Both the position numbers and the translations under genes were made by a program. The notes under the pieces were generated by a model. It was not told the DNA's origin. It saw only the letters and a program-made list of their open reading frames with translations, and made no database searches. A stretch of 64,000 nt of DNA from the UHGV virus genome UHGV-0101699. One strand, 5' to 3'. The stretch is from a virus. Below, one piece after another: positions 1 through 22,478 of this stretch (positions within the stretch are counted from its first letter, which is position 1; each line of letters starts with the position of its first letter).

Positions 1-1996
1 AGACATAGTCGTCCAACATGCCTGACTGAATTGGACCTGGTCTGAAAAGCGCAGTTGTGGCCACAATGGTTTTGAAGCTCATTGGCTCGATACCACCACC
101 CAGATCTTTGAGTAGCTTCCTCATGGGGCCGGACTCAAGCTGGAACACACCTTGCGTATACCCCGCGGCGAATCCATCAAGTACTTTGCGATCATCCAGT
201 GGGATGGCATCGAGGTTGACGTCCTTACCGGTGCTCTCTTTGATGTAACGTTTTGCGCTATCCAGCAGATCGAGAGTGGCCAGGCCCAGAACGTCCAGTT
301 TGATCAGCCCCATGGCCTCGCAGTATCGTTTATCGAATGCGATGCAACGCGCGTCTCCACGTCGCTCTACAGGGGTACGTTCCGTCAGAGGTACGCCAGC
401 AACAATCATCCCTGCAGCATGGCGGCCGAAGCCACGCATCAGGTTTTGCAACTTGCTCGCCGCCTTAAATGCGTCCGGATGTTTGGTGGCGTACTTGTCC
501 AGGCTGGCCAGCTGCTCGCGCAGCTCCGACAGAGATAAACTGTCATCCTCCAGGGTCTTTAGCTCCTTGGAAACAGCCATATCCGCCGCATCAACTCCAT
601 AAATACGCGCTGTGTCGCGCAGTGCGGAAGCGGCGCCCAGATAAGTGAAGTTCGGAATGCCTGCAACATACTCTTCGCCATATCGGGCATTCAGATACTC
701 GATCACCTCATGGCGCCGCGCCTGGCTAAAGTCCAAATCCGCATCCGGCAAGTCGAGACGTTCAGGGTTAATGAAACGTTCGAACAGAAGACCATGACGG
801 ATTGGGTCAACGTTAGTAATGCCGATGCACCATGCCACCAGAGAGCCGGCGGATGAACCACGACCTGGCCCGACAGGAATACCAGTCTCGCGACTATGAT
901 TCATCAGATCGCGAACCATCAGGAAATAACCGCAGAATCCCAGGCGAGTGAGCGTTTCCATTTCATACTTGAGGCGATCGACGTAAATGCGGTGCTCGGA
1001 AGCTGGTGGCGTGTAGCCAAATTCTTTGTTGCTGAGACGTTTTCGAAGCCCTGCGACAGCCAGTTTCATCAACGTTGCAGGCTCATCGTCTGCCATTTTT
1101 GGCAGCGCCGGCGCCATCTCGTGCCAGCGCCATTCGCACGCCTTAACAATGGAGTCCTGCGTTGTAGAAGCCATGGCGGCAGACACAGATACGCCCATCC
1201 GGACAGAAAACTCTTTCAGAGCCTGCAGCAGATGACGGCGACCATTTATTGCATTGTCGCGCTGGTGGGGGATACGCAGCCGGTGTGGCTGATCGACTTT
1301 GATATTGTTCATCACCATGTGGGCGATGTCTTTGATGTCAGCGTCATCAACCCCTTCGTAATAAGCTGGGTAAAACGCAACGGGCTCGATTTTCAGTGCG
1401 CTTGCCACTTTCATGGCTCGCACGTTGATCTGGTCATAGAATGGCGTAGGGTGTGGATATACGACGCTGTAGAAATTATCGCGTCCACCGGCAGTAATCA
1501 GCGCACTAATAATTTTAGCGAAGTCCGGGCGCTGGAATACGCTGCCGATATCCGAAGTCAGTAACAGTATATTGCCTTTAGCGTATGTAGCCGCCAACTG
1601 GTCGAGCGCCAGGCGTGGCACGAAGTAAAACTGCTCGCGGGTATTGGCTAAAGTCATTAGTTCGCAAATGTCGCGATAACCTTGCTCGTTTTTAATCAGT
1701 GCGGTGAAGCAGTAGTTACGTCCACGCTCCAATGATTCCATACATCCATTAGACTCTTTAGCCAGTTTAGCCCGGTACTCGTATGTTGGATCGTCGACAA
1801 CATTCAGCTTAACACCACAGATCACCGCCATCTCATCGCCAGCTGCTCGTTGCAGGGGGATAACGCTGGCGATATTCATCGTGTCAGCAGAGATAACCGC
1901 GGTATAGCCAGCCTCCTTTGCCACCTTTACTGCGTGCTCTGCTTTCAGTGCTGATTCTCCCAGGGAAAAATCAGTCCTGACCATCAGTGCTTTCAT
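1..1996 (-). CDS. dnaE: DnaE-type DNA polymerase III alpha subunit, N-terminal ~665 aa (gene runs off window start)
   Basis: Own minus-strand translation from ATG at 1996: MKALMVRTDFSLGESALKAEHAVKVAKEAGYTAV (PHP domain) ... PGRGSSAGSLVAWCIGITNVDPIRHGLLFERFINPER (DnaE palm signature); frame open to position 1; preceded by AAGGTAAAAACAC-ATG initiation region shared with other early genes. Plus-strand ORFs 57-1564 are antisense noise. Confidence 0.8.
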   Translation of the reverse strand, partial: MKALMVRTDFSLGESALKAEHAVKVAKEAGYTAVISADTMNIASVIPLQRAAGDEMAVICGVKLNVVDDPTYEYRAKLAKESNGCMESLERGRNYCFTALIKNEQGYRDICELMTLANTREQFYFVPRLALDQLAATYAKGNILLLTSDIGSVFQRPDFAKIISALITAGGRDNFYSVVYPHPTPFYDQINVRAMKVASALKIEPVAFYPAYYEGVDDADIKDIAHMVMNNIKVDQPHRLRIPHQRDNAINGRRHLLQALKEFSVRMGVSVSAAMASTTQDSIVKACEWRWHEMAPALPKMADDEPATLMKLAVAGLRKRLSNKEFGYTPPASEHRIYVDRLKYEMETLTRLGFCGYFLMVRDLMNHSRETGIPVGPGRGSSAGSLVAWCIGITNVDPIRHGLLFERFINPERLDLPDADLDFSQARRHEVIEYLNARYGEEYVAGIPNFTYLGAASALRDTARIYGVDAADMAVSKELKTLEDDSLSLSELREQLASLDKYATKHPDAFKAASKLQNLMRGFGRHAAGMIVAGVPLTERTPVERRGDARCIAFDKRYCEAMGLIKLDVLGLATLDLLDSAKRYIKESTGKDVNLDAIPLDDRKVLDGFAAGYTQGVFQLESGPMRKLLKDLGGGIEPMSFKTIVATTALFRPGPIQSGMLDDYV

Positions 1997-6133: not shown

Positions 6134-6341
6134 CAGGTTTCATTTGGAGGTGATGGTACTACCTATTGATATAAAAGTTAATAAAAATGTATCGTAATGT
6201 CTTAAACAAAAATAATCAAAAAAATCAACAGAAGTACCGGATTTTACTAATTTATACCTTATTTCGTGTGATTTATGTGCGATAATTGCCTACAAATAGC
6301 CGGATGTAAGACTTTACAATAATAACCGTTGCTGTAATATC

Positions 6342-6355
6342 GGTAAGTACTTACC
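6342..6355. promoter_or_regulatory. perfect palindrome GGTAAGTACTTACC upstream of HTH gene
   Basis: read directly. Confidence 0.6.
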
Positions 6356-6388
6356 ATACAATAAGATCACACGAGGATAGTAACTACA

Positions 6389-6769
6389 ATGACAATGGCC
6401 GATGAGAAGACCGCTCGTTACGTCGCCTACATCGATTCTTTAATCACTGTTTCGCCGAAAAGTCAGTCGGCGATCTCCCGTGAGATTGGTTACAAGAATC
6501 CCAACATTTTGTCCCTGATAAAAAAGGGAAGAATTCCGCTGCCGGTAGAGAAAGTGCTACCACTGGCAGAAGCACTGAATGCAGACCCAGTACGTCTCAT
6601 GATGATGGTTCTTGAAGACCGTCAGCCTGAGCTGGCAGATTTTTTACGAGACCAGGGCATAGCGCCGCTGACTCCGGAAGAACGTGAGGTTCTCGCAGCT
6701 TTCCGCAACCGCTTTCCGGCTCAAACTGATGGTGTTGAGCAGGTTGTGGAAGCAATTAAAAAGCTATGA
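6389..6769 (+). CDS. XRE-family HTH DNA-binding protein (candidate repressor/regulator)
   Basis: 126 aa; HTH-like SQSAISREIGYKNPNILSLIKKGRIP; perfect palindrome GGTAAGTACTTACC 34 bp upstream; adjacent to integrase. Confidence 0.6.
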   Translation: MTMADEKTARYVAYIDSLITVSPKSQSAISREIGYKNPNILSLIKKGRIPLPVEKVLPLAEALNADPVRLMMMVLEDRQPELADFLRDQGIAPLTPEEREVLAAFRNRFPAQTDGVEQVVEAIKKL

Positions 6770-7864
6770 GAAGTTTACTCTGATCAGCTCGGTGGATAGG
6801 CGATCTCCCTTCATTTTGTGGTCAATTTCTTCTAAATCTGGTTGCTCAACAATCGACGAGATGTACGATGAGAAGCTCTCAAGGGCTTCTCGCATCTGAT
6901 CCATGTAGTCATATCGGTCGTATACACGGTCGATACCTTCCAGACTATGATTCATGATCTTACGTGATACTTCCTGAGAAATATTAAGGGCTGGAAAGTA
7001 GCTGCGTGCCGTTCTACGCAGATCACGTGGGGTAAACGACTCCACTTCCCCAAGCTCTGGTCGCTCTAGAATCCGCCTCAACGCCTGGGCTATTGCAACC
7101 TTTGACATTGGCGTATCAGCTTTCTTTTTGTTCGACGGGACGAGCCACTGGCTGCCGGCGCCATAAGCAATCAATTCTTCTACGCACTTCCGCATCAGTG
7201 AGCTCATCGGAAGGGTGTGCGACCGGGCCGATTTGTTGCGAGACCCTTGATTCCATACATTTAGCTTAAGGTCGAACTCGCTTACTCTGGCCCGCAGCAC
7301 TTCATCTGGACGTCTGGCAGCTACGAGGCAAAGCCTTGCCGCCCATTTCGTGCCTGGACATACGTCGAAATAGTCCCAGACATTCCAGAATACCCAAACC
7401 TCTGCGTCCGTCAGGCATCGTTCCCGCGGGGCCGTCTTCGCGCCGCCGGCAACTTTGTTCAGCGACATATCATTCAGGGGCGATGTTTCGATAATTCCCT
7501 GGAAGGCACACCATCCCAGGAACTGCTTCATGATGGAAAAAACACGGCGACCCATCACGATCTTCCCTTCAAGGATCAGCGGGTTGACCAGCTGATTCAC
7601 CATTATTCTATTCAGGTTACTTACTTTTTCCTGAGCGATATGCGGGAGAACATGTATCAAAACACAATGGACAGCTATCTCGGGCCGGCGGCGAGTTATC
7701 AATAATGATAAGCGAGTGAATAACATGAATGCGTCGGCGAAAGTCAGATCGGCTCCCTGCATCGAGACCGATCTGGCATCCATCTGCGATGCCCGATCCA
7801 GATAGGTGATCGCTTCCTGTGACGTGTTTTCCGCTGCGCGTGCTCTGTCAAACGTGTTTTTCAT
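6764..7864 (-). CDS. int: tyrosine integrase/recombinase
   Basis: 366 aa; C-terminal catalytic region ...LRRTARSYFPALNISQEVSRKIMNHSLEGIDRVYDRYDY (R, H, Y catalytic residues in phage-integrase arrangement). Confidence 0.8.
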   Translation of the reverse strand: MKNTFDRARAAENTSQEAITYLDRASQMDARSVSMQGADLTFADAFMLFTRLSLLITRRRPEIAVHCVLIHVLPHIAQEKVSNLNRIMVNQLVNPLILEGKIVMGRRVFSIMKQFLGWCAFQGIIETSPLNDMSLNKVAGGAKTAPRERCLTDAEVWVFWNVWDYFDVCPGTKWAARLCLVAARRPDEVLRARVSEFDLKLNVWNQGSRNKSARSHTLPMSSLMRKCVEELIAYGAGSQWLVPSNKKKADTPMSKVAIAQALRRILERPELGEVESFTPRDLRRTARSYFPALNISQEVSRKIMNHSLEGIDRVYDRYDYMDQMREALESFSSYISSIVEQPDLEEIDHKMKGDRLSTELIRVNFS

Positions 7865-7962
7865 AATCTGGCCACTGTATGACGCTTTTTATACTGTGTT
7901 TATATACAGTATATTAGGCATTGTTTTTATTGAGATCAACCTAAAATACCCTCTTTTGTCTA

Positions 7963-7993
7963 ATGATTCCATACCTACCAAGTATGGAATCAT
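7963..7993. promoter_or_regulatory. perfect 11-bp inverted repeat ATGATTCCATA-n9-TATGGAATCAT upstream of int, followed by AAAGGCCTTTTTTT hairpin
   Basis: read directly; the same 11-mer recurs at 11959-11969 and 13252-13262. Confidence 0.5.
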
Positions 7994-8213
7994 AGAAAGG
8001 CCTTTTTTTGAAAATTAGTCATCAGGGCCGTGCATTTCCCGCTTGTTTGTTTGCGACATCACCCTTGTCTTTGCGTTATGTCCCATCGTTGTCCGGTGCC
8101 AGTTTAGTCATGTTTGCGTCTATGGCTGTCTCGATGCCGCCTGGTCTCGAAGGGGGGACTTCGTCAATTCATGATATGATAGCTTTAATGGTATAGCTAT
8201 GAAGGAATCATAG

Positions 8214-8573
8214 ATGATGACCTTAAAATATTATTTACGGCACTGCTTATGGGGATGGTGTGGTTATGGCTATCTGATCTATTTTATAGTGCGCGATATG
8301 AATGACGGACTAATTTTTCCTGCCTATGTTCCTTATATGCCATTTGTGGTTACATATCTTGTTTTAAGCGCCGTCCTGTACCCATTCTCATATTATACTT
8401 CGGAGAAACTAGCCCTTAAGATAATGACCAAACCCTTTTGGGATCGTCACATTGGCGTGAATAGCGGTGTGTATGGCATGTTCATTATTTTGTGGTTATT
8501 TTGCCTGCCGCTTTCGGTACCGTTATTTCTCGTATATTTATGCATACGCGCAAAGACTAGATTAAGTGCCTAA
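8214..8573 (+). CDS. pore-forming-colicin immunity protein homologue (colicin E1/10-class Imm-like inner-membrane protein)
   Basis: 119 aa, 3-4 predicted TM helices; pattern TLKYYLRHCLWGWCGYGYLIYFIV...VLYPFSYYTSEKLALKIMTKPFWDRH parallels remembered ColE1 Imm [24 protein letters not shown]...[26 protein letters not shown]; AT-rich, plus-strand, own promoter region. Confidence 0.55.
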   Translation: MMTLKYYLRHCLWGWCGYGYLIYFIVRDMNDGLIFPAYVPYMPFVVTYLVLSAVLYPFSYYTSEKLALKIMTKPFWDRHIGVNSGVYGMFIILWLFCLPLSVPLFLVYLCIRAKTRLSA

Positions 8574-8637
8574 AAAATATGAAAATTATCGCAATATAAC
8601 CACGCTACGAATGAGAAAGGCATGGAGCTGCAGGTAA

Positions 8638-9048
8638 CTACGGGTTTGTTAATTTCTGGAAGGCTGCCGCGTATTTGGCGATGTCGCTCATTTTGGCTGG
8701 ATCACTGGCTGTTTTGTGTGCCTCTTTCGGGAAGATGGCCAGCAGACTATACACGTCCTGAAACTTGGCGTGCTGGGTATAAACGAGGGCGCGGTCGCTT
8801 GTACAGTTGAACCTGTTTCGGTGACTATTTCGTTCTTGCTTGGTGAATAAGAGATGAACGTGGTAAACACGAGAGGAAACTACAGAACCAGGTTCGGTAT
8901 AGGGGCCATCTTTGCCAAAAACGGCCGGATAAAAGCCGTTTTTAAAACTCACAAAGTCAGCAAGTAAGGAGGTCTTCAGATCAGGCATTACTCTGAAGAC
9001 CGGCTCCAAAAATTGGGCGTAACTATCACTGTTCCATGTGACTTTCAT
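8638..9048 (-). CDS. YafO-like toxin (ribosome-dependent mRNA interferase family) homologue
   Basis: 136 aa; LLADFVSFKNGFYPAVFGKDGPY / HVHLLF / ALVYTQHAKFQDVYSLLAIFPKEAHKTASD resemble remembered E. coli YafO LTADFISYKRDGVLPDTFGRDALY / HIHL / HLVYCQGAFDEQAWLLIAILKPEPHKLARD. Confidence 0.5.
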   Translation of the reverse strand: MKVTWNSDSYAQFLEPVFRVMPDLKTSLLADFVSFKNGFYPAVFGKDGPYTEPGSVVSSRVYHVHLLFTKQERNSHRNRFNCTSDRALVYTQHAKFQDVYSLLAIFPKEAHKTASDPAKMSDIAKYAAAFQKLTNP

Positions 9049-9057
9049 CGATCAGCC

Positions 9058-9675
9058 TTAATGGAAGGAGAAGTTTGCGAAGACGTCCTCATCAATGAGA
9101 CCTGTCTGCGATTCGATAACCTCAACTTCGTTAAAGCACTGATTTAAAATCATCAGGAGGTCAGAAACCGCCAGACGGTACTCAGTGATAGCATCACTCA
9201 AACGTTTCAGGTACGGATGTGGCAGTTCGGCGTCACGGATGAACTTGTTAACGAAGCCTTCTAAACCGCGTATGGACAGGTCAACGTTCTTCAAGTCCTC
9301 GTAACGGCTTTCACCGAAAGTATCGCGGATCTGTTCCGCACTGTAACCTGAAATGTTATGGGTCAACTGGACGTGTTTCGCCGTCAGCTCTGCGAGCCTT
9401 TGTTCAATATCCGCAAGTTGAGCTGCGGTGTCACTCTCAGCAACCGGAATACCTTCCGTTTGCGGCAGTCTGAACTCATGGGAATCTGCAAAACCGGGCC
9501 TCGTCGACCTTGTGATGCCGCCGAAACGAGGACGCATCTTAAATTTTGTGTGTACACGCTTCGGGAATGCTTTCGGAGTGCTATTTGCATTCGAAAAGCG
9601 TGAAGCGTTAGAAGTCACGGTAGCAAGAGCATTGCTAATGACATTCATATCTTCCAAGCAATTTTCTAAATGCAT
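9058..9675 (-). CDS. hypothetical 205-aa protein immediately upstream of and co-oriented with YafO-like gene (candidate non-canonical antitoxin/partner)
   Basis: ORF with AGAGG SD; 9-nt gap to downstream gene; no similarity to YafN/Phd noticed. Confidence 0.5.
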   Translation of the reverse strand: MHLENCLEDMNVISNALATVTSNASRFSNANSTPKAFPKRVHTKFKMRPRFGGITRSTRPGFADSHEFRLPQTEGIPVAESDTAAQLADIEQRLAELTAKHVQLTHNISGYSAEQIRDTFGESRYEDLKNVDLSIRGLEGFVNKFIRDAELPHPYLKRLSDAITEYRLAVSDLLMILNQCFNEVEVIESQTGLIDEDVFANFSFH

Positions 9676-9769
9676 AAAACCTCTTTACAGCTAAATGGCT
9701 CGTACCTAAGTGTACGCTCTGTTATCAAAAGCGACAAATCAAAACGGCCCCAAACGGAGCCGTATTGTA

Positions 9770-10015
9770 TTACAGAGTGCTTGCGAAAGCAGCAAATTCT
9801 GTGTAACCGCCGATTGGAACATCGTCCAAAAACACCTGGGGAATGGTTTCTACCGGCTTCCCAACCATGCCACTCAGCTTTTGCTTATCGATCCCGGCAG
9901 CGACAATATCGATGTACTGATATTCGCCATATCCATGCCCCTGCAGCTGCTTCGCCAGCTCAACTGCCCGCTTACAGAAGGAGCAATTATCTCGGCCATA
10001 AATCACACACTTCAT
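9770..10015 (-). CDS. nrdH: glutaredoxin/NrdH-like redoxin
   Basis: 81 aa; MKCVIYGRDNCSFCKRAVELAK (CxxC active site in thioredoxin-fold context). Confidence 0.7.
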   Translation of the reverse strand: MKCVIYGRDNCSFCKRAVELAKQLQGHGYGEYQYIDIVAAGIDKQKLSGMVGKPVETIPQVFLDDVPIGGYTEFAAFASTL

Positions 10016-10398
10016 TGTTTTGCCTCGTTAAATCTTTGTTTTAAGAGATATCCTTCAAGTGGCCAGATTTTAGCGACTGCGTTCTGGCGCGCAATCTTAC
10101 GACCGATCTCCGGATCAAAGTTTTCCGGGCTTGCACAAGCTGATTCACCGGTAACGATGAATCCGTTCTCCAACACCAGTACACAAAACGTCAGTAATTT
10201 AAGCGACTCAAGATCAGCGTCGCCAGCAACTGGCACCTCTTTGCCGGCATAGGTCCCACTTGCCAGGGCGCCAGATCTGCCATCAAAGGCCGTAAAATAA
10301 TGTTCGGCGCGGATAACGCTTTGGATACGTTCTGGGGTTACTCGCGCGGCCGTTTTTCCCTTGGCCACGATTTCTTTTTCGATTTCCATGTCAGTCAT
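10012..10398 (-). CDS. hypothetical conserved phage protein (128 aa)
   Basis: ORF with AAGGAAACAAAATG TIR; start overlaps downstream stop. Confidence 0.5.
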   Translation of the reverse strand: MTDMEIEKEIVAKGKTAARVTPERIQSVIRAEHYFTAFDGRSGALASGTYAGKEVPVAGDADLESLKLLTFCVLVLENGFIVTGESACASPENFDPEIGRKIARQNAVAKIWPLEGYLLKQRFNEAKQ

Positions 10399-10407
10399 TT
10401 TGTTTCC

Positions 10408-11184
10408 TTACAGATAAGCTTGAAGCGCCACTTTGCATAGCTCAGAGCGCACGCAATCTTCGGCCGTGAACTCAATGAGCCCTACTTGGCGAGATGGCTG
10501 GAACCGCTGCAGGGCGTCCTCAAGACCAGATTTAACATTACCCGGCAGGTCGCATTGCGTTACATCACCATTCACGATGACTGTTACGTTCTCACCCATC
10601 CGAGTTAGGAACATCTTCATTTGTGACGCCGTCACGTTCTGGGCCTCATCGAGGATGACCACAGCATTTTCGAACGTGCGACCGCGCATATATGCGAAAG
10701 GTGCGATCTCGACTTTGGCCACTTCTGGTTTGAGGCAGTATTCGAGAAATGAAGCGCCCAGGCGCTTCTGGAGCACATCGTAGACGGGACGAAAGAACGG
10801 AGCGAACTTCTCGGCCATATCGCCAGGCAGGAAGCCCAAATCCTCCTCTGCCTGCAGTACGGGGCGCGTAACGATAATTCGCTCTACTTCCTTATCGAGT
10901 AATCGCTGTGCCGCGACTGCCGTCGCCAGGAAGGTTTTACCGCAGCCGGCTTCGCCAGTGGCGAACGTCAGTGCTTTGCTATCAAGGGAGATAAGATAGT
11001 GGGCCTGGGCCTCATTGCGTGCCTCTATGGGGGAAGTGTCACGCTTCGGTTTTGGGGGCAGAGCAGGGGCGGCGGTGGCCAGCTCGTCTACGATAATAGT
11101 GTCGATCTCGTATCCGAGAATACGCGATTTTGACTTAAGCGCCTGGCGAGCTGCACGTCGCGCCTGTTTACGTTTGTTTCCCAT
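10408..11184 (-). CDS. phoH: PhoH-family ATPase
   Basis: Walker A GEAGCGKTFLA, Walker B ILDEAQN; ORF extends to 11280 but terminator hairpin at 11284-11301 and MGNKRKQARR start at 11184 favour shorter form. Confidence 0.8.
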   Translation of the reverse strand: MGNKRKQARRAARQALKSKSRILGYEIDTIIVDELATAAPALPPKPKRDTSPIEARNEAQAHYLISLDSKALTFATGEAGCGKTFLATAVAAQRLLDKEVERIIVTRPVLQAEEDLGFLPGDMAEKFAPFFRPVYDVLQKRLGASFLEYCLKPEVAKVEIAPFAYMRGRTFENAVVILDEAQNVTASQMKMFLTRMGENVTVIVNGDVTQCDLPGNVKSGLEDALQRFQPSRQVGLIEFTAEDCVRSELCKVALQAYL

Positions 11185-11283
11185 ATTGAGTCCTTTCAAG
11201 TGAGTAACCAGACGAACTATACCTAAAAGAGAACGCAAAAGTAAGTAAGTAGTTACATAACAACAAGAGCGCTTATGCAAGAA

Positions 11284-11301
11284 AAGGGGCCGAAGCCCCT
11301 T
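11284..11301. terminator. GC hairpin AAGGGGC-CGAA-GCCCCTT with flanking T-runs on both strands (terminator of tRNA transcript)
   Basis: read directly. Confidence 0.5.
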
Positions 11302-11456
11302 TGGATTTTGCGCTGAAAAAGTGTTGCTAAGATGCTAGAAGCTATGGTTAAAGAACGTCTGCCGTAATGTCTATCACAGCGTTGAGCGGTCTGGCCATGG
11401 TGACAGGCGGAGTCTTTTCGATAAGAAAAACAAAACCAAACCGCTCAACGCTGTGT

Positions 11457-11543
11457 TGGCGGAGGATAATGGAATCGAACCATCATCGCTTTCGCAATGG
11501 GACGGTTTTCAAGACCGCTTGGGCGCCATGCCCTCTATCCTCC
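11457..11543 (-). tRNA. tRNA-Ser (anticodon UGA), type II with long variable arm
   Basis: reverse complement GGAGGAT...GCGGT-CTTGAAA-ACCGT...GATGG-TTCGATT-CCATT-ATCCTCC-G-CCA; acceptor, anticodon and T arms pair; CCA encoded. Confidence 0.65.
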
Positions 11544-11690
11544 GTTCGTTGTGACGCCAGATGCTTATCTTCTGGTTGCTTCAACGAGCTGCAATTCATC
11601 ACAACGGTAAGGGCATTCAGGGAATCAGATCCGTCGCGAACAGCCAAAGAGCGCGCCTTCCTTGCTGTCGTCCAAATACCCTTACCGTTG

Positions 11691-11765
11691 TGGCGATGGT
11701 GGGTGGATTCGAACCACCGACCAGTTGATTAACAGTCAACCGCTCTACCACTGAGCTACACCATC
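11691..11765 (-). tRNA. tRNA-Asn (anticodon GUU)
   Basis: reverse complement GATGGTG-TAGCTCAGTGGTAGAGC-GGTTGACTGTTAATCAAC-TGGTC-GGTGGTTCGAATCCACC-CACCATC-GCCA. Confidence 0.75.
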
Positions 11766-12037
11766 TAAGGTTGACACCGTCAGCCTCTGTCGATTCACGG
11801 ACTTGTGGGGCTGTATCGCCGATTCACCGGTGTCGTTCGCAGCAGTCCTACCGCTTTCTGCCACTTGTGCTTTACGTATTCACCAAACGCTTACAAGCCA
11901 AGATCTTCAAATACTCTCCGAGGGTTGAGGAGGGCTTTCTTTCAGATCTAATTGGATGTATGGAATCATTTAATCGTTGTGGCCACGGGGCAGTGACAAC
12001 AATGGCTATAACCAGAAGGATAATGAATCCGTGACCA

Positions 12038-12130
12038 CAACGTTGAGACCACTGGACGGATTAATGTACTTGGCCCTACATGTCTGCCGGTTCTGCCTCT
12101 GTGATGCAAAAACCAGTGGTCTCAACGTTG
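12038..12130. repeat. 18-bp perfect inverted repeat CAACGTTGAGACCACTGG (12038-12055) / CCAGTGGTCTCAACGTTG (12113-12130), 57-nt spacer, inside ~900-bp non-coding stretch
   Basis: read directly. Confidence 0.8.
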
Positions 12131-12694
12131 CGTGCTGGCTCACCTAACCAGCCGGGTTACGTCGCCATTTTTAACCCAAAACTAAACGACATAAGTAACA
12201 GAAATGACGTAACAGGATAGACGGTCGGGCCTTTGGGAGCCGGGATGTGTTGGACATAAAACCCAACCGCCCATTCTGTTACCTCATCGGTAAGGGCACT
12301 GGTTAACCAGATGCCCTACCTGCGTTTTGCAATCACACTCGCTTAGTGTGTCCCATTTCGGTGACGAGGCTGGAAACTGACCTCGCTGGTGTTTAGCTTT
12401 TTAGGCTACTGCCAGGTACTGATTGTCGTTTGCAGTTATCTTTAAACGTTCAAACAGTCGCGTTTCAACGAAAACAAGCCAATCATAGTTGTATCAATTT
12501 AATAAGTAAATACTTACCTATTATTTCATACGTCAGTTTGATCATTTTTTGATCAGTACTGGCTTCTCATCCTGCGTCCGTTGGATTGTGGCCGTTAAAC
12601 GTTTGACTCTGATCAATCGCACTTTCTTAGATCTGTAGCAGTCACCTGTTCTACGTTGTTAATACATTTTGTCGTCTATGAACGTATAAGTGAT

Positions 12695-13111
12695 TCACAC
12701 AATTTTACTTATCCATCCTTCGATAACATCATAGGCCACATAGCTTTTCGCGATAACAGTTGTCGCTATTACAAAGAACCATTTATGCTTTCCCACAAAT
12801 CTTTTCACCTTTTCATATTTACTCAGTGATCCCTCGTAATACTCAATCAGAGTAATCCACTGCTGAATTTGCTCTTTATAATGATTACAAAGATTTTTAT
12901 TTATTTGGGCTTGCTGCAACGACCGACTCCTAGACAACCAACCACCAGTAACTGGTGGCTTAATTTCAGGCAGTTCAGTATCAAATTTAGTACGTTGTTG
13001 GTTAAGCCGATCAACAACAACACGAAGTTCATCTGCGGTGAGATCATTACGAGCATAAATATCTTTCAGTTGAGCTAGTGTCATATGAAGCACTCTTTTG
13101 GTTGATGACAT
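12695..13111 (-). CDS. hypothetical protein (138 aa) with C-terminal hydrophobic segment
   Basis: ORF; AT-rich. Confidence 0.45.
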   Translation of the reverse strand: MSSTKRVLHMTLAQLKDIYARNDLTADELRVVVDRLNQQRTKFDTELPEIKPPVTGGWLSRSRSLQQAQINKNLCNHYKEQIQQWITLIEYYEGSLSKYEKVKRFVGKHKWFFVIATTVIAKSYVAYDVIEGWISKIV

Positions 13112-13262
13112 TAATTATACCATCTTCAGATATGCTCTGTAGGAGTCGCCCCGTGGAGCTACAGAAATGTAAGTTACGGGCAAACTTCTTAATCAAGTCA
13201 TGACAGATGATGAAGCCAAGGGCGACGCCTCCAAAAAAAGACAATACGATGTATGGAATCAT
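13047..13262 (-). CDS. small membrane protein (71 aa) starting MIPYIV
   Basis: AGGAG SD 9 nt upstream; ATGA overlap with upstream gene; N-terminal TM helix; overlaps 12695..13111 ORF in another frame so one start is probably wrong. Confidence 0.4.
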   Translation of the reverse strand: MIPYIVLSFFGGVALGFIICHDLIKKFARNLHFCSSTGRLLQSISEDGIINVINQKSASYDTSSTERYLCS

Positions 13263-13474
13263 GAGTATTCTCCTGCTTCAATCAGTTGCTCAAGCAGCTC
13301 TCGCCCCTTATTCGTTAACTGGTAGTTCTCTGCCTTTCCTTCCGGTTCGACATTGGCCACCAGGTTCATCTGTTCGAGCTTGGCTCGTGTCTTGGGTTTC
13401 CAGTTAGCGTAGAAACATGACCATTGGCTGATTTCACGCAGGGTTTCCTTCTCTCGCTTACTCAGGACGATCAT
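13259..13474 (-). CDS. hypothetical protein (71 aa)
   Basis: ORF. Confidence 0.45.
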   Translation of the reverse strand: MIVLSKREKETLREISQWSCFYANWKPKTRAKLEQMNLVANVEPEGKAENYQLTNKGRELLEQLIEAGEYS

Positions 13475-16290: not shown

Positions 16291-16518
16291 TCAAAAGACA
16301 GCGAAGAGGGACATAATGGCACCAACCCAACACAGCAGTGCATAGGCCACAAGAGCGTTTAGCTCGGAGCGAAGCTATCTATCAAGACTTAACCTTACTA
16401 ATGCTGTTCGTACTCTGCTAACATCTTAAAGCGCACAGCAATGTGTCAGGGTATTGACCACCCTGATTGATAACAAACGCCATAAAATCAGAATGCGTTT
16501 TGCATAGAAGAGGAAGGT

Positions 16519-17685
16519 ATGACTTTGTGGACTGACTCATATCAAAGTTCAATTGACTCAATCAGTAATTTTATCGACAATAATTTCACACATTATAATG
16601 AAATTCCCGAAAATTTATCTCGCCTAGATGATTCAGTGTTAGCGGATTGTATAATTGTAGTTGCATGGCGATACTTTAAAAACTTATACATTCATCGCCG
16701 AGACTCGCTTAACAAATACACTTCATATAATCAGAAATTTTTACACCAAGGCAACACCCCTAGCTTACAAGAACTAAAAGATGATAAATTTTACTTCCTA
16801 AATAAAATTCTAAGAATATTATTTGAGTACAACTTTTGGGCTTCTGATGATTTTGGCCCGCCCATGTTCTTAAGCCCTGAAATTCTAGAAAAACTGGACA
16901 AGCTAAAACCACCATCAGATTTCCAGGTTAATTTCATTTGGATCGAGCGATCTATGCCTGCGGCTTTGACAAAAGATTTATTGCTATCCGATAAATTTTC
17001 ATACTTAACCAAAATTGCAGTTGACGTAGAAAACTTCGAAAGCACCATATCTCAAAACATTGAAAATGGGCTTAAAGATGTCGAAAATAAAACGAATGAA
17101 TTAAGAGAGCAAATCAATGAACTTATACAATCTTCCAACTCGTCAATACAATCCTTAGACGAATATGATTCCAAACTAAAAGAATATAAAAGTGATTATA
17201 ATTTTGTTCTGTTGAGCAAAGCATTCTCAAGCTTACGAGAAAAAAAAAGAAGAGAATTCATGTTTAATAATTTTATCGTCTTGGTTTTTTCGCTATTTCT
17301 AACTTGTATCCCCCTGATTGCCTTAGCGAATCACATAAAAGGCTGGTATATTGTCGAATTAAACTTGAATTCGCTTGCTTATTACTTGCCGCTACTTTCA
17401 CTAGAGTTGTTAATGTTCTATTTCATGCGCCTTTATTATATTGAAGGGAAGGCTATTAAAGCTCAATTGCTTCAGATAGATCAACGCCTTAGTCTGTGTG
17501 AGTTTATACATGATTATGTTGAGACCAAAAAGAACTCTGGTGCTGAAAAGGAATCCTGGTCGCTTTTTGAGAAGTTGATTTTCAGCCCAATACAGGTTAC
17601 CTCTGAAAATATACCGTCTTTACTGGATGGTGCATCATCTATTGCCGAGTTAGCAGGAAAAGTATTGTCCAAAGATTCTAAATAG
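16519..17685 (+). CDS. AT-rich opposite-strand moron: 388-aa protein with N-terminal soluble domain, coiled-coil and two TM helices (candidate abortive-infection/exclusion or defence effector)
   Basis: very low GC versus flanks; TM segments FMFNNFIVLVFSLFLTCIPLIALA and YLPLLSLELLMFYFMRLYY; own upstream region with TCAGGGT-n7-ACCCTGA inverted repeat (16447-16467); strong terminator downstream. Confidence 0.7.
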   Translation: MTLWTDSYQSSIDSISNFIDNNFTHYNEIPENLSRLDDSVLADCIIVVAWRYFKNLYIHRRDSLNKYTSYNQKFLHQGNTPSLQELKDDKFYFLNKILRILFEYNFWASDDFGPPMFLSPEILEKLDKLKPPSDFQVNFIWIERSMPAALTKDLLLSDKFSYLTKIAVDVENFESTISQNIENGLKDVENKTNELREQINELIQSSNSSIQSLDEYDSKLKEYKSDYNFVLLSKAFSSLREKKRREFMFNNFIVLVFSLFLTCIPLIALANHIKGWYIVELNLNSLAYYLPLLSLELLMFYFMRLYYIEGKAIKAQLLQIDQRLSLCEFIHDYVETKKNSGAEKESWSLFEKLIFSPIQVTSENIPSLLDGASSIAELAGKVLSKDSK

Positions 17686-17690
17686 CCATG

Positions 17691-17715
17691 TTGGCTGCCC
17701 AAAGAGGGCAGCCAA
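17691..17715. terminator. bidirectional hairpin TTGGCTGCCC-AAAGA-GGGCAGCCAA between convergent genes
   Basis: 10-bp perfect stem, 5-nt loop. Confidence 0.7.
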
Positions 17716-17724
17716 CAATACACT

Positions 17725-18849
17725 TCACGAATTAAACACTTTTATACCGAGAACCTTGCTCTGGAGCTCCAGCTGCTTAGAGTAGGGTTTTGCACGATAG
17801 TAGGCTTTGAGAATTTGTTCCTGGGTGGCCTCCCCGGGATCTAGCCCTTCTTCTCCAAGACAGGCTATTTTCACATTTAACCCTATACTGGCTAATCGTC
17901 TGGCGGCCGCCATTGTGTTTCGGATCGCTTGCTTCTCGCTATCCCACATCATGATGACGTTTCGCAGACCATCAGCCTTTAACGACAGAAACGCGCCCAG
18001 TTGGTCTTCTGCGTCTACAGTCGTGTTTCCGGACAGATGCATCCCGAACGTGCCAATGGGCTCTACGTAGTCCCGGAGCGTCTCTTCGTCGAATATGGCG
18101 CGCTTAACCCCCATGACATCGAAAGCCCCTTCACAGACGACGACGGTCTGTTTACCAACTGCGTTATGACCGTTATAGAGAAACCTCCCGGATGCCGGCA
18201 GCTGCATAGGGAAGAGATATCGGCGTTCTGCTGCGCCGGTGACGTCACGCCCCTGGAATGTCTTCATCACCCCATTCAGATCGTAAATCGGTATCAGGAT
18301 GCGCATATCGAATGCCTGCCCTTTTACCTGATCGGTATATGGGTCGACATAAGCATGTTTTCCCTCGACGCAGTAACGCAGGTCAAAATATTTGGCCAGC
18401 TCCGGGGTAATGTTCCGCTCAACAAGATAGTCCGGCAGCCGACCGTCAATTGGCAGTTCATAATGCCGCGGTAAAGCCACCGGGCCTTCAAGTTCCACAG
18501 CACTGGCCAGCACAACCTCTTCTTTTTTTGGCGCCCAACCTTGAGACAAGAGTGCGTTATGTACGTACTCCTCAAAGGCACGACGAGACTTACCGCTGTA
18601 GTGTTTGAGGAAAACCAGCTTGTTAAATTGAATTTCTTCTGGGTGATCGCCGGCGAAGCATTTCCCGACGTTGTTGGTCAGGTTGAAATAGACCTTCCAG
18701 TTTGTGCTTCCGCATACCGGACATTCTTTGATATTCACTTCGCGGCCGCGGGCGCTTACACCGCCGCGACGATAGATGATGCCTTCCATATCCAGCCATT
18801 GTTCGAAATCCAGCTCGGACAGTAACTCTTTGAGGTCACTCATTGTCAT
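17725..18849 (-). CDS. dnaG: DnaG-type DNA primase (zinc finger + TOPRIM)
   Basis: CPVCGSTNWKVYF...KCFAGDH zinc-binding motif; TOPRIM VVVCEGAFDVM; 22-codon upstream ORF (18846-18914) ends in ATGA overlap with primase start. Confidence 0.8.
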   Translation of the reverse strand: MTMSDLKELLSELDFEQWLDMEGIIYRRGGVSARGREVNIKECPVCGSTNWKVYFNLTNNVGKCFAGDHPEEIQFNKLVFLKHYSGKSRRAFEEYVHNALLSQGWAPKKEEVVLASAVELEGPVALPRHYELPIDGRLPDYLVERNITPELAKYFDLRYCVEGKHAYVDPYTDQVKGQAFDMRILIPIYDLNGVMKTFQGRDVTGAAERRYLFPMQLPASGRFLYNGHNAVGKQTVVVCEGAFDVMGVKRAIFDEETLRDYVEPIGTFGMHLSGNTTVDAEDQLGAFLSLKADGLRNVIMMWDSEKQAIRNTMAAARRLASIGLNVKIACLGEEGLDPGEATQEQILKAYYRAKPYSKQLELQSKVLGIKVFNS

Positions 18850-18995
18850 TCACCGCAGTTTTTAAAAGGCAATATCTTGATAAGCCTCGGTTTTTGAATA
18901 CCATAGAGGCTCATGTGTTTTTCCTTTTGTGATTAAACAAAAGGTAATTTGGAAGGGCGTGGGGCTGTTATCCGTCTTTGCCCAACGCCTATTTT

Positions 18996-20336
18996 TTAAA
19001 GAACTTCCATGATCCGCTCGATGAAGCGCATCTGTTCGAGGTTCTGCTTAACGCGAATACTCACCCCGCCCTTCTGGTTACGAGAACCAGCAAAATAGAG
19101 TCGTGCTTCACCTTTGGCTTCTTCCTCCTCAGTCTTGTTGATAGTGATGACTAAGTCGGCAATACGGACTTTTTCGATATTGTCCGCGGCGTGCATCATA
19201 GTGGCCACTTCGGATGAGCCACCTTCACGGTTGGTCTGGGATGCCGTGATTCCTGCAACGTTGTGCTTATCGTAGAGAGCACGCAGATCGGTGTAGATAG
19301 AACGGATGTTCGCCCGGTCGTCACGGAGGTCGTAACTGGCACGCATCAAGTCCGCATAGTCGACCACCACCATATCCGGGATCATGCCATTCGCTTTCAT
19401 GCTATTGAGCATACGATCCAAATCTGCAGGCGACATGCTTCCTGACGGGCGCTCAACCACCCAGAGATTCCCCACCCCTTTCGTCGCGCCAATCTCCGCG
19501 AGTTTCCGGTGAACGTCGTCACGCTGCTCTACCAGCTTTGACATCTCCGTTTCAGACAGCCGCGCATCGAAGCGATCGGAGAGAATCGAGGTATGCACTT
19601 CGAGAGAAAGATACAAAACGTTGTAGCCGGCCAGCGTTGCGTTAATGGAAAACTCCCCCATCGCTGTCGATTTACCTGATTTCGCAAAACCCATGAAGAG
19701 CACCATCTCACGTTTCGCCCACCCTTTTTGATAGAGCATACGATCCAGCAGCGGAAGACCGGTGGTGATGCTGTTCGGCACGTAATCATCAGAGGCTTCA
19801 TATTCACGGGCCTTGTAACGTTCCGCTGCAGAGGCGAAATAGTCATAAATGCCCGTCGCTTCGTTAGAACCGATCTGCTGCACTTTGGCCATGATGGCCA
19901 TCGCTCCCTGGAAGTCGCCCTTCTCCTTCATCTCGGCCGCTTTAATCAACGCATCGTCGAACGCTACACTTTTAGCGAACGTCGCGACCTGGTCGACCAT
20001 GTAAGCCGTATCAGAGAGTTTTTCCGAGAGCACTCGCTTAAACGCCGCCACAACGTCCGGGAACATCTCTTCTCTGATCGTCTTATCGCGTTTAGCACGC
20101 TTCAACATATCGAGGATGGCCGCCGATGAAGGCGCGCTCTTATACATTCTGAAATAGCCAGATACCATGTTCACCAGTATGGCGTTCGCCGCATTGGAGA
20201 ATTGGTTGGGGGCAACCAGATCGCCGGCACGAGTCAGAAACTCATGATCGCGGCAAAAATACGCCGCCAGACGATTCTGGAAGTCGTCGTCGAACTCTTC
20301 AGACAACCCTCGTCCCGTGTGGCAAAGTTCGGTCAT
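18996..20336 (-). CDS. dnaB: DnaB-like replicative helicase
   Basis: 446 aa; Walker A GFAKSGKST in RecA-like C-terminal domain. Confidence 0.8.
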   Translation of the reverse strand: MTELCHTGRGLSEEFDDDFQNRLAAYFCRDHEFLTRAGDLVAPNQFSNAANAILVNMVSGYFRMYKSAPSSAAILDMLKRAKRDKTIREEMFPDVVAAFKRVLSEKLSDTAYMVDQVATFAKSVAFDDALIKAAEMKEKGDFQGAMAIMAKVQQIGSNEATGIYDYFASAAERYKAREYEASDDYVPNSITTGLPLLDRMLYQKGWAKREMVLFMGFAKSGKSTAMGEFSINATLAGYNVLYLSLEVHTSILSDRFDARLSETEMSKLVEQRDDVHRKLAEIGATKGVGNLWVVERPSGSMSPADLDRMLNSMKANGMIPDMVVVDYADLMRASYDLRDDRANIRSIYTDLRALYDKHNVAGITASQTNREGGSSEVATMMHAADNIEKVRIADLVITINKTEEEEAKGEARLYFAGSRNQKGGVSIRVKQNLEQMRFIERIMEVL

Positions 20337-20359
20337 GTGTTTGTTATCCTTTGGTGCTT

Positions 20360-20372
20360 AAACAAGTTGTTT
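20360..20372. promoter_or_regulatory. AAACAAGTTGTTT palindrome upstream of dnaB-like gene
   Basis: read directly. Confidence 0.6.
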
Positions 20373-20400
20373 TCTAATCGTAAAAATATGGAGAAGGCAA

Positions 20401-21126
20401 TCAACACAGTCGCCGTGCTTCTTCCAGTTCTTCCGGGTAATGGGCATAGATAACGCGCTCAGGCACCAGCTCCATCAACCAGACAGCAGAGAAGATGGTG
20501 CGGATACGCTTATCACGGGTGATGTGCTTCAAACGCTCCAGAACCCATTCAAAGTAACGTTCCTGAATTGGGTCATGCTGCATGTCTCCTAAGTGCTTAA
20601 AACTCACTACAGAGTCATCCAGACGCGTTCCCGCACGATTGGCGAGTTTGCTTTCGAAGATCTCAATCAGTTCTGGCTGCCAAAGATGCTGAGGGCGAGG
20701 TAATTTGTCCCAGAGCCGGCGCGCAGCTGCAGAGAGAACAGTTGATATAAAATAGTCATAAGAGCAGCAATACCGATCTGCAAACTGGCGAGCTTTCCAG
20801 AGAGATGTTTTGTTCACCGCCGAAAGCTCTTGGTAAGGCAGGCGTTTCAGACCAGTGCTGAATGGCGCCGTCTCGAAATGCTCGCGGCCATGAGACAGCA
20901 TGATCTGTGAGTATGCGCGCTTATAGGCTTCGGTGAACAGACAGGTTGCCATCAGCGGGTGCATGTCGCGATAGTCAAACCACTTTGTATCAAAGAGCTC
21001 AGCCTCTCCCTGGCATCGTGAAAGACCGATGTTTTCCGCAACCCACTTGTCCATAGCGACCGTGTCCCACTCTGTCATGAAGTCGTACTGGCCGTTGTTT
21101 ATGGTATCAAAAAAGATCTGGCTCAT
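20401..21126 (-). CDS. hypothetical protein (241 aa)
   Basis: ORF. Confidence 0.5.
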   Translation of the reverse strand: MSQIFFDTINNGQYDFMTEWDTVAMDKWVAENIGLSRCQGEAELFDTKWFDYRDMHPLMATCLFTEAYKRAYSQIMLSHGREHFETAPFSTGLKRLPYQELSAVNKTSLWKARQFADRYCCSYDYFISTVLSAAARRLWDKLPRPQHLWQPELIEIFESKLANRAGTRLDDSVVSFKHLGDMQHDPIQERYFEWVLERLKHITRDKRIRTIFSAVWLMELVPERVIYAHYPEELEEARRLC

Positions 21127-21404
21127 GCCCCCACCGATAGGTAACTACTTACTTAACATTTGGCTGATCATATCGACTAGTTACTGTTTTTGGAAGTGGA
21201 AACGGAAGGGAATGTGTCTGGGAATTTGGTATAAAAAGCCTGTCTCCATATAAATAATATGTAGCTTAGTATTTATATACAAAAGCAGGCTACAAAACAG
21301 ATGCCCAGAATCACATAATTTGATTTAATTCCCAGATGCTATGTTACTGACAGAACTGACTGATTAACCAAGGCTGACCATGTTAAAATCAGCGCTTTAT
21401 CCTC

Positions 21405-22478
21405 GTGAGTATTATCAATATGCGCATGAACAAACTTCCCGGATATGGTCTTCCCGAGCTGGCTTTCTGGCCTCAGCCTAAATACGAACGAAATAATTGG
21501 TCTATGTTCTGTCTGAAACTTCGTGATGATGGAACTCTGGCTTGGTATAGGCGATATGTTGATCGAGGTATGCCAAACCTCGCCTTTGATGACGTCTACG
21601 ATAGCTATCTTGATGCAAGAAAAGCGGCGGAAGAACTAAATAAAAACATAGCTTTCAATATAGATGATCTATCTTTAACTCAGCAGCAAAGAGAATCACT
21701 ACGCTTAAAAATTGATAAGGCGCTCATCTCAAAATCGCGACTGATGGATGAGGAGCATATGATGCTAAATGAGGCCATTAGAAGACACACGAACGATCGA
21801 CGTTTGTCATCAGATGAGCTAATTATCAAACCTGAAGGGTTAATCGTACGTCCCTATCTGCTAGACATACTACACGAGATGCCTTACTTGCATTGGATTT
21901 TCCTACCCACCTTCCAGACATGTTTCAGACTAACAGAACCTAACACCTGGGAGCAAGTGCATAGCCCCAGAGCAAAATCATCCAAAATTTGCTACCAGGA
22001 ACGTATCGCCAGAGGGTTTGGTTTATCAGGCACTGCACATTGGGGCAAAACAAAAGCGACTATTCGCTCAATGCTTCTGCCACGTGCCAACCAGCTACTA
22101 CAACTCGCCAGCGTAAAAAGAATGCTGGATGAGGCTCTCCGGAATGGACGAAAAGTAATCGTCGTTGGCAGCTTTGTTTTCTGGTTCGAAGACATAAATC
22201 AGATAGGTTGGAGTGTTAAAGAAGCAAATGACAGCGAAATTACCTCAAGAGGCAATACGCTCTGGAAAGAAGGTACTATCATTTCAAAAAATCACGGTCG
22301 AATAGTCGTTCTACCGTATACAAAGGAAAACGGTGAGCATGTAAAAGGCTACACCAAGAACGCCCCCAACGACGGCAAAGCGATTCCGAGGCATAAGGAT
22401 GAGTATGTTGAGCTGCCATTTGAAATTCTGGATGGTGACTTGATGTTCAGCCTGTTCGGTGAACTTAACTACGAATAA
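21405..22478 (+). CDS. hypothetical 357-aa protein on opposite strand with own promoter region and terminator (moron)
   Basis: ORF; divergent AT-rich region 21127-21404; terminator 22497-22531. Confidence 0.65.
   Translation: MSIINMRMNKLPGYGLPELAFWPQPKYERNNWSMFCLKLRDDGTLAWYRRYVDRGMPNLAFDDVYDSYLDARKAAEELNKNIAFNIDDLSLTQQQRESLRLKIDKALISKSRLMDEEHMMLNEAIRRHTNDRRLSSDELIIKPEGLIVRPYLLDILHEMPYLHWIFLPTFQTCFRLTEPNTWEQVHSPRAKSSKICYQERIARGFGLSGTAHWGKTKATIRSMLLPRANQLLQLASVKRMLDEALRNGRKVIVVGSFVFWFEDINQIGWSVKEANDSEITSRGNTLWKEGTIISKNHGRIVVLPYTKENGEHVKGYTKNAPNDGKAIPRHKDEYVELPFEILDGDLMFSLFGELNYE

Follow-up and report, generated by a model that had tools for sequence, protein, structure and literature searches.

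A putative core recombination site and conserved solitary copies of its arm sequence around the integrase gene of an SSU5-like Klebsiella phage-plasmid

Repeat copies around the integrase gene

The DNA analyzed here, in the following called the window, is a stretch of 64,000 nucleotides of the virus genome UHGV-0101699 and belongs to an SSU5-like (pKpn-type) Klebsiella phage-plasmid. Its minus strand carries dnaE, a cobS-like and a cobT-like gene, an open reading frame (ORF) of 76 aa and int, the gene of a tyrosine recombinase ("integrase"), on which a helix-turn-helix (HTH) gene of the plus strand converges. Next to int lies a short palindrome (7963-7993), followed by about 4 kb of cargo with a colicin-E1-immunity-like gene, a YafO toxin gene, a glutaredoxin gene and PhoH. 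Past this cargo, genes for tRNA-Ser and tRNA-Asn, a 700-bp ORF-free stretch, small ORFs and a ligase gene are found. The sequence of the palindrome arms occurs again at several places on both sides of the palindrome, and it is this set of repeats that is described in the following (Table 1).

Table 1. Repeat copies and associated features of the window
Feature	Position	Strand	Remarks
Solitary copy A, GATGTATGGAATCAT	1732-1746	-	in frame within dnaE (DnaE, Pol III alpha), codons G-C-M-E-S
Tyrosine recombinase ("integrase", Int), 366 aa	6764-7864	-	Pfam PF00589 (Phage_integrase) and PF22022 (Phage_int_M)
Near-copy ATGTATGGAATCAA (13/14) in the int coding sequence	7247-7260	-	codons N-V-W-N-Q
Candidate -10 hexamer TATTTT of the int promoter	7943-7948	-	TA...T positions invariant on the int side across relatives
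Int-proximal arm (plus strand reads ATGATTCCATAC)	7963-7974	-	exact inverted copy of the 12-mer; unchanged in 116 related int loci examined
Spacer CTACCAA, presumed crossover region	7975-7981		always 7 bp
Cargo-proximal arm, GTATGGAATCAT	7982-7993	+	both arms change to GTCTGGAGTCA in the recombinase clade of 44-49% identity
Semi-conserved T-run/GAAAWTCT element, TTTTTTTGAAAATTA	8003-8017		past the cargo-side arm
Solitary copy D	11955-11969	+	non-coding; 190 bp from tRNA-Asn; edge of the 700-bp ORF-free region
Solitary copy E	13248-13262	+	a small membrane protein begins here on the minus strand (codons 1-5, including the start codon, MIPYI); shares bases with the stop codon of ORF 13259-13474

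The exact 15-mer is present three times in the window, as copies A, D and E. An earlier note on this DNA had called it duplicated; the sequences and coordinates it gave for the copies at 11955-11969 and 13248-13262, as well as for the 11-mer cores at 7983-7993 and, inverted, at 7963-7973, are all correct, but the third exact copy at 1732-1746 (-) within dnaE had been overlooked. Likewise, an inverted repeat does lie upstream of the integrase gene as described there, with arms of 12 bp and not 11 bp, so that the complete element has the structure 12-7-12 and a length of 31 bp. The statement that the repeats are far above chance is borne out by the counts: allowing up to two mismatches, six matches were found, compared with 0.11 expected from shuffled sequences, and none of 100 shuffles reached six. 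In the complete 110-kb pJN2-26, a relative of 98% identity, all copies with at most one mismatch fall inside one 12-kb stretch that extends from dnaE to the small ORF past the tRNA genes.

The reading ATG-ATT-CCA-TAC indeed opens ORFs at the repeats, as had been noticed before; these have 6, 10, 20, 34 and 71 codons, however, and not only 10, 19 and 71. The peptides downstream of MIPYI are unrelated among the copies. In addition, the copies are spread over three reading frames and non-coding DNA. This rules out that they encode a common peptide or derive from duplication of the 5′ end of a gene, the latter being one of the explanations offered by the earlier note.

The palindrome and its recombinase

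For comparison, 52 IMG/VR loci found with Int, 78 more found with the ligase, and the corresponding loci of Cyrano, pJN2-26, SSU5 and pMT1 were used. The palindrome was present upstream of int in every examined int locus in which it was sought, and it was absent from SSU5 and a further locus (L060), both of which lack int. In phage-plasmid and in non-phage contexts alike, it lies 20-106 bp from int, with one exception at about 2 kb: in the close relative L007 (IMGVR_UViG_3300045988_154041) the distance to the int start is 2009 bp instead of 99 bp, suggesting that DNA has been inserted between palindrome and gene.

When one genome per species was scanned, the palindrome turned up in seven, four of them SSU5-like contexts (Y. 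pestis, Kluyvera, Buttiauxella) and three belonging to Chimaeribacter species. The latter carry exact AATGATTCCATAC-n7-GTATGGAATCATT 46-47 bp upstream of an Int of 55-57% identity, with no further gene matching the phage-plasmid; the neighbors are LacI-type regulators and sugar-metabolism genes. More distant Int proteins, 44-49% identical, were found in Rahnella, on a 508-kb Pantoea replicon (megaplasmid), in Erwinia and in phage-plasmids of Xenorhabdus and Providencia. Here, both arms read GTCTGGAGTCA, two positions being altered symmetrically in both, while the 7-bp spacer and the distance of 20-106 bp to int are retained. In Rahnella, Erwinia and Pantoea, int and palindrome are located on contigs with ordinary cellular genes.

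The class of the arms thus follows the recombinase clade, with GTATGGAATCA at 55-100% and GTCTGGAGTCA at 44-49% Int identity, and the two arms switch together. That only two arm sequences exist over 44-100% Int divergence, each constant within its clade amid flanks that cannot be aligned, argues for sequence-specific recognition by a protein and not merely for a conserved hairpin. The spacer measures 7 bp in every palindrome found, with either arm type. Its sequence is lineage-dependent and is found in either orientation with respect to int (e.g., CTATTAA and TTAATAG). The flipped spacer was considered as a signature of recombinase action, and this idea was dropped by reasoning, as conservative inversion cannot flip a spacer with respect to its flanks. 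A short spacer that lies between perfect inverted repeats can be flipped by template switching.

A conserved partner gene on the cargo side was sought among these loci and none was found, all cargo-side neighbors being mutually unrelated. Given this, and with the HTH gene missing in the non-phage contexts, int alone accompanies the site throughout. Of the two binding partners proposed in the earlier note for the inverted pair, the integrase is therefore strongly supported, by co-occurrence in unrelated contexts and by co-variation of the arms with the recombinase clade, whereas a repressor is disfavored, as the palindrome is present with int where the neighboring HTH gene is absent. The int-less junction of SSU5 is not present in any of 585 matching plasmid records; the HTH-int module is thus a constant component of the plasmid form. 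The loss of int from SSU5 appears to be recent, since the locus L059 has an identical ligase and carries int. With this recent loss and the 585 plasmids in mind, the absence of int from SSU5 was set aside as an argument against binding by Int.

The AlphaFold model of Int (pLDDT 87) has the two-domain fold of tyrosine recombinases. Its best structural matches are the core-binding and catalytic domains of lambda Int, Tn1549 Int, XerH, IntI and Cre; in Foldseek, Cre chains rank 36th or lower, at 11-13% identity, and lambda Int, Tn1549 Int and XerH score above them. A sequence search of the PDB with Int returned no match at E <= 0.01, Cre included. The nearest relatives by sequence are integrases of the P4/CP4-57 type (27-34% identity), which share the Phage_int_M and Phage_integrase domains. 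An arm-binding domain was not detected in Int, with neither PF13356 nor PF14659 giving a match. Int is about 55 residues shorter at its N-terminus than the nearest outgroup, which has PF13356, and the N-terminus of the Int model is helical. The outgroup example that was inspected has a tRNA remnant and prophage genes as neighbors; no palindrome comparable to the int-proximal one was seen there, just inverted repeats with 7-8-bp arms more than 150 bp upstream. The recombinase is an arm-less offshoot of the P4-type integrases and stands outside the Cre sequence family. R185, K211, R283 and Y315 are invariant in the in-group, and H306 is found in 42 of 46 members. The position of the HxxR (box-II) histidine is occupied by Arg280 in all 46 in-group sequences as opposed to His in 11 of 11 P4-like outgroup sequences.

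At the palindrome, conserved int DNA gives way abruptly to hypervariable cargo. When 200 bp on each side were compared for 82 distinct loci, the int side formed approximately one family (77 of 82), whereas the cargo side fell into 23 unrelated families. Copy D is 1.2-6.3 kb away from the palindrome, depending on the locus. On its far side, the cargo slot is bordered near the tRNA genes and not at D; only one of its borders is defined by the site. The slot of Y. pestis pMT1 is taken up by the F1-capsule operon caf1; this plasmid has lost copy D and the tRNA genes but keeps copy A, the copy inside int, the palindrome and copy E. The earlier note had considered recombination scars marking the boundaries of inserted modules and had suggested aligning relatives to see whether the sites flank variable cargo. 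For the palindrome this is the case. It does not apply to the solitary copies, which have no second arm, do not lie at boundaries and are fixed in place throughout the family; being conserved in place in this way, they are unlike scars.

The content of the slot itself is diverse. In the window, a gene for a colicin-E1-immunity-like membrane protein (8214-8573) and one for a YafO-family toxin (8638-9048), which follows a 205-aa ORF, lie near the site (region 8214-9675), and TsiV-like, Acb2/Tad1-like and Gp38_N-like genes occupy the same slot in other relatives. In a Y. pestis pMT plasmid (L156, NZ_CP045159.1), caf1, caf1A, caf1M and caf1R are found at 16409-22197, starting about 630 bp from the core site.

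Two further elements adjoin the palindrome. The T-run/GAAAWTCT element (A-rich, AGAWTTCAAAAAA) is located 11-25 nt beyond the cargo-side arm and is present in many of 35 otherwise unrelated cargo flanks, including those of Chimaeribacter. It does not co-vary with the arms; it possibly serves as an accessory site or as a promoter element directed outward. On the other side, the conserved hexamer TAtttT lies 14 nt beyond the int-proximal arm. From the position of this candidate -10 element, the matching -35 element, if spaced in the standard way, would be located in the int-proximal arm, which would make autoregulation of int likely. A scan for sigma-70-like promoters and terminators reported none at the palindrome or at any copy, and the candidate TATTTT was likewise not reported by this simple scan. 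The motif itself was also considered as an extended -10 element; this was dropped, as the alternative arm GTCTGGAGTCA destroys it.

On the other side of int, an AT-rich divergent region of 255 bp (6134-6388) separates the 76-aa ORF, which heads the cobT-cobS-dnaE operon, from the HTH gene encoding 126 aa (6389-6769). This region contains palindromes of its own, GGTAAGTACTTACC at 6342-6355 and GGTACTACC at about 6155, and together with the HTH gene it looks like an immunity switch. The HTH module is missing from the lytic isolate SSU5.

Conservation of the solitary copies

The solitary copies occupy the same positions in the same orientation across more than 100 related loci, where the motif is invariant and the flanks diverge. 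This syntenic conservation speaks against coincidence, of which absence from relatives or loss of synteny had been named as signs in the earlier note. The 11-mer footprint is conserved alike in the arms and in the solitary copies. On the side corresponding to the spacer, the latter are extended by an invariant AT or GAT, and the rest of the flank follows the local context. Concerted evolution of this spacer-side flank was considered and rejected, only GAT or AT being constant.

An indication of constraint comes from dnaE. Among 43 distinct dnaE N-terminal segments, chosen by homology, 41 have exact TGTATGGAATCATT; in those, 92% of the wobble positions vary, whereas the four consecutive ones of the motif never do. 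These frozen wobble positions point to a constraint on the nucleotide sequence itself. Copy A lies in a variable stretch of DnaE (residues ~80-92), in which NGCMESLERG is replaced by GEELLPIDRD in Xenorhabdus and by GEEVPVYKMG in K. michiganensis phage-plasmids. The near-copy inside int keeps its 11-mer core at 55-57% Int identity (L136, L148) and is absent from an E. coli group of 82-83% identity. Copy D forms an invariant island within semi-conserved flanks in an alignment of nine diverged relatives, with no border at this place, and is missing from pMT1; copy E is invariant in 28 distinct sequences and retained in pMT1 and SSU5. Judged by this pattern of conservation, the solitary copies are under selection at the DNA level.

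All four copies point away from the palindrome in every lineage, with A and the int-internal copy to the left on one strand and D and E to the right on the other; with n=4 this arrangement is not statistically significant. A search for a degenerate second arm at a distance of 7 nt from the solitary copies gave none. Among about 130 loci, no inversion, deletion or other rearrangement ending at a solitary copy was seen, order and orientation being identical. Solitary copies are found only in phage-plasmids whose palindrome shares the 11-mer; the Xenorhabdus and Providencia phage-plasmids with GTCTGGAGTCA arms have neither type.

The ORF-free stretch between D and E (11970-12690, 700 bp) is of lower GC content and starts directly after D with a hairpin, GTTGTG...CACAAC, that shows compensatory changes among relatives. 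A relative (L136) carries a tRNA-Gln gene in the equivalent region. Matches to transfer-messenger RNA at 12347-12517 (-) were weak and sub-threshold only, and an Rfam search of 11300-13400 returned the two tRNAs and otherwise sub-threshold noise. Possible identities of the stretch are a structured RNA, a decayed tRNA cluster and a replication origin.

Interpretation and alternatives

With moderate confidence, we interpret 7963-7993 as the putative core recombination site of the adjacent recombinase, and the solitary copies as probable single-arm copies of the same binding element. Two 12-bp recombinase-binding arms would flank a 7-bp crossover spacer, and the pair might work in the manner of Cre/loxP, that is, with a simple recombinase lacking an arm-binding domain and a short symmetric site just upstream of its own gene. 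This lox-like reading is suggested by the simplicity of the recombinase, by the 12-7-12 site upstream of its gene and by the fact that the site is intact in every locus examined, on plasmid or phage-plasmid contigs. On a plasmid-prophage, the recombinase would convert plasmid multimers into monomers. Multimer resolution is the most economical and most likely role, as it suits phage-plasmids as well as large contigs of cellular genes. Binding at the site would probably also damp the int promoter. The one-sided cargo mosaic could arise, as the boundary pattern suggests, if sites on different replicons recombine now and then and the products are resolved by homologous recombination in the backbone. 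The three exact 15-mers and the near-copy in int would, on the most likely reading, each bind one recombinase monomer and act in regulation or architecture of the replication-gene region. We put the chance of such monomer binding slightly below even, and it is the weakest part of the account.

A literature search for the arm sequences returned unrelated primers only and no paper in a relevant context, and a recent review on phage-plasmids mentions multimer resolution only as a generic plasmid function. Among known systems, Cre/loxP of P1, Dre/rox and VCre/VloxP are closest in layout. They too consist of a tyrosine recombinase without arm-binding domain and of inverted elements around an asymmetric spacer of 6-8 bp, with the site just upstream of the gene on a plasmid-prophage, and their presumed role is multimer resolution. 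In contrast to Cre/loxP, the system described here has no detectable sequence relationship to Cre, a 12-7-12 instead of a 13-8-13 site, an arginine in place of the box-II histidine and a P4-type descent; conserved single half-sites elsewhere in the genome are also not known from the P1 lox system. The P4/CP4-57-type integrases, which have their attP at tRNA or tmRNA genes, are the nearest relatives of Int by sequence, but they possess the N-terminal PF13356 domain and a canonical HxxR motif and sit at the tRNA-flanked end of a prophage without a comparable palindrome.

The sfx sites of the Rci recombinase (IncI plasmid shufflon) consist of one conserved 12-bp arm, a 7-bp spacer and a non-conserved second arm. 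The solitary copies resemble them in combining a conserved 12-mer with a conserved ..GAT on the spacer side. Unlike sfx sites, however, they show no inversion or deletion between them in the roughly 130 loci, are 1-6 kb apart, lie in essential genes and have spacer-side sequences that differ from that of the palindrome. A report on XerCD/dif-like (pdif) sites of Acinetobacter plasmids describes tyrosine-recombinase sites at the borders of exchangeable cargo modules (PMC5790767), and in this respect the palindrome, which likewise coincides with a cargo border, is similar. Those sites are complete 11-6-11 sites of the host Xer system on both sides of a module, whereas here a single complete site with a dedicated recombinase marks one border.

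Several observations weigh against the interpretation of the palindrome and the solitary copies as sites of Int. The box-II histidine is replaced by arginine across the whole subfamily, so that catalytic activity has to be assumed. Type IB topoisomerases have a basic residue at the position equivalent to the HxxR histidine, which makes recombinase activity with Arg280 plausible. Furthermore, multimer resolution and integration (the palindrome then being an attP) are not separable with these data. With neither a second arm nor a rearrangement in the loci compared, a role of the solitary copies in recombination is unsupported, and a different binder is conceivable for them. The phage-plasmids with GTCTGGAGTCA arms do without solitary copies, which shows that such sites are not obligatory to the system, and SSU5 retains A, D and E without int. 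It is possible that the solitary copies are bound by another regulator of the phage-plasmid or act via pairing at the RNA level.

Both of these possibilities can be extended to all copies including the palindrome. Single asymmetric sites of about 14-17 bp, some of them paired into a symmetric double site, are known from the C1 operators scattered over the phage-plasmid P1. By analogy, all copies could be operators of a phage-plasmid regulator, either the 126-aa HTH protein or another repressor, the palindrome then being a double operator that lies between divergent genes. The scattered single asymmetric sites together with one symmetric pair between int and a divergent gene would suit such a function, as would the restriction of the solitary sites to SSU5-like phage-plasmids and the HTH gene that converges on int in all phage-plasmid contexts. 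In the Cyrano lysogen, moreover, CYRAN_43, the gene beside the palindrome, stands 723-fold over local background, and the HTH homologue is expressed (PMC9928086). We nevertheless regard this explanation as unlikely. The symmetric site tracks the recombinase gene and not a repressor gene: palindrome and int occur without an HTH homologue in Chimaeribacter (BLAST), no HTH gene was called beside int in Rahnella, Pantoea or Erwinia, and the arms co-vary with the Int clade. In addition, the AT-rich region upstream of the HTH gene has different palindromes of its own, e.g., GGTAAGTACTTACC, and three of the four solitary copies lie inside coding sequences and not at promoters, the promoter scan having reported no sigma-70-like promoter at any copy or at the palindrome. 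Distinctly unlikely, in our view, is the palindrome being an attP core through which the recombinase integrates the phage-plasmid or the int module into the chromosome, the solitary copies being secondary or former attachment sites. The descent of the subfamily from P4/CP4-57-type integrases and the presence of int and palindrome at different places in large contigs with ordinary cellular genes are in line with it, and a 7-bp overlap region between inverted core sites is typical of integrase core sites. Yet the recombinase has no arm-binding domain, and the site was intact wherever it was found on plasmid and phage-plasmid contigs, never split into attL and attR, chromosomes not having been searched for half-site junctions. 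The int-less junction is absent from all 585 plasmid records, and the solitary copies have no second arm and no matching spacer.

At the RNA level, the palindrome could form a stem-loop in a transcript, and the right-hand copies (UGAUUCCAUAC in leftward transcripts) could pair as an antisense or small-RNA seed with the left-hand ones (GUAUGGAAUCA in the dnaE and int mRNAs). The sense-strand copies on either side of the palindrome are in fact perfectly complementary over 14 nt, the symmetric changes in the arms also keep the hairpin, and D borders the 700-bp ORF-free region with its conserved, compensated hairpin. The limitation to two arm sequences across the whole range of Int divergence, constant in clades with unalignable flanks, is a sequence-specific conservation that argues against such pairing, however; the stem would not even be part of the int mRNA, because the candidate -10 element lies downstream of the palindrome, and the Rfam search of 11300-13400 gave no match beyond the tRNAs. 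We therefore consider this explanation very unlikely. Coincidence or coding constraint alone, finally, might be invoked since three copies overlap coding sequences and E encodes the conserved N-terminus MIPYI. The conservation analysis refutes it, and we give it virtually no credence: the six matches exceed the expected number by far, the copies are spread over three reading frames and non-coding DNA, four consecutive wobble sites are invariant where nearly all others vary, and the copies are syntenic in more than 100 loci.

Provided that the palindrome is the site of Int, the recombinase and its site represent a previously unannotated family with two natural specificity classes, defined by GTATGGAATCA and GTCTGGAGTCA arms. 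The family is carried by common phage-plasmids of the SSU5/pKpn/pMT1 type in Klebsiella, E. coli, Salmonella and Yersinia, and also by the 508-kb Pantoea replicon and large contigs of Rahnella and Erwinia; its recombinase/site pairs are candidate orthogonal tools for genome engineering. The site also locates precisely the slot at which these elements swap DNA. Genes of toxin-antitoxin, immunity and anti-defence-like type are found in it, and in Y. pestis pMT1 it contains the caf1 operon. Single half-sites conserved within essential replication genes are an extra feature beyond a lox-like pair, which could raise the standing of the finding if they are functional. One rather doubtful idea is that the recombinase of plasmid maintenance also controls the phage side, with monomers bound at dnaE, int, the tRNA leader and the start of the small ORF gating the lytic replication genes or organizing the replication-gene region. 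If true, a multimer-resolving recombinase would double as a regulator acting at dispersed sites, a combination that, to our knowledge, has not been described for Cre-like systems.

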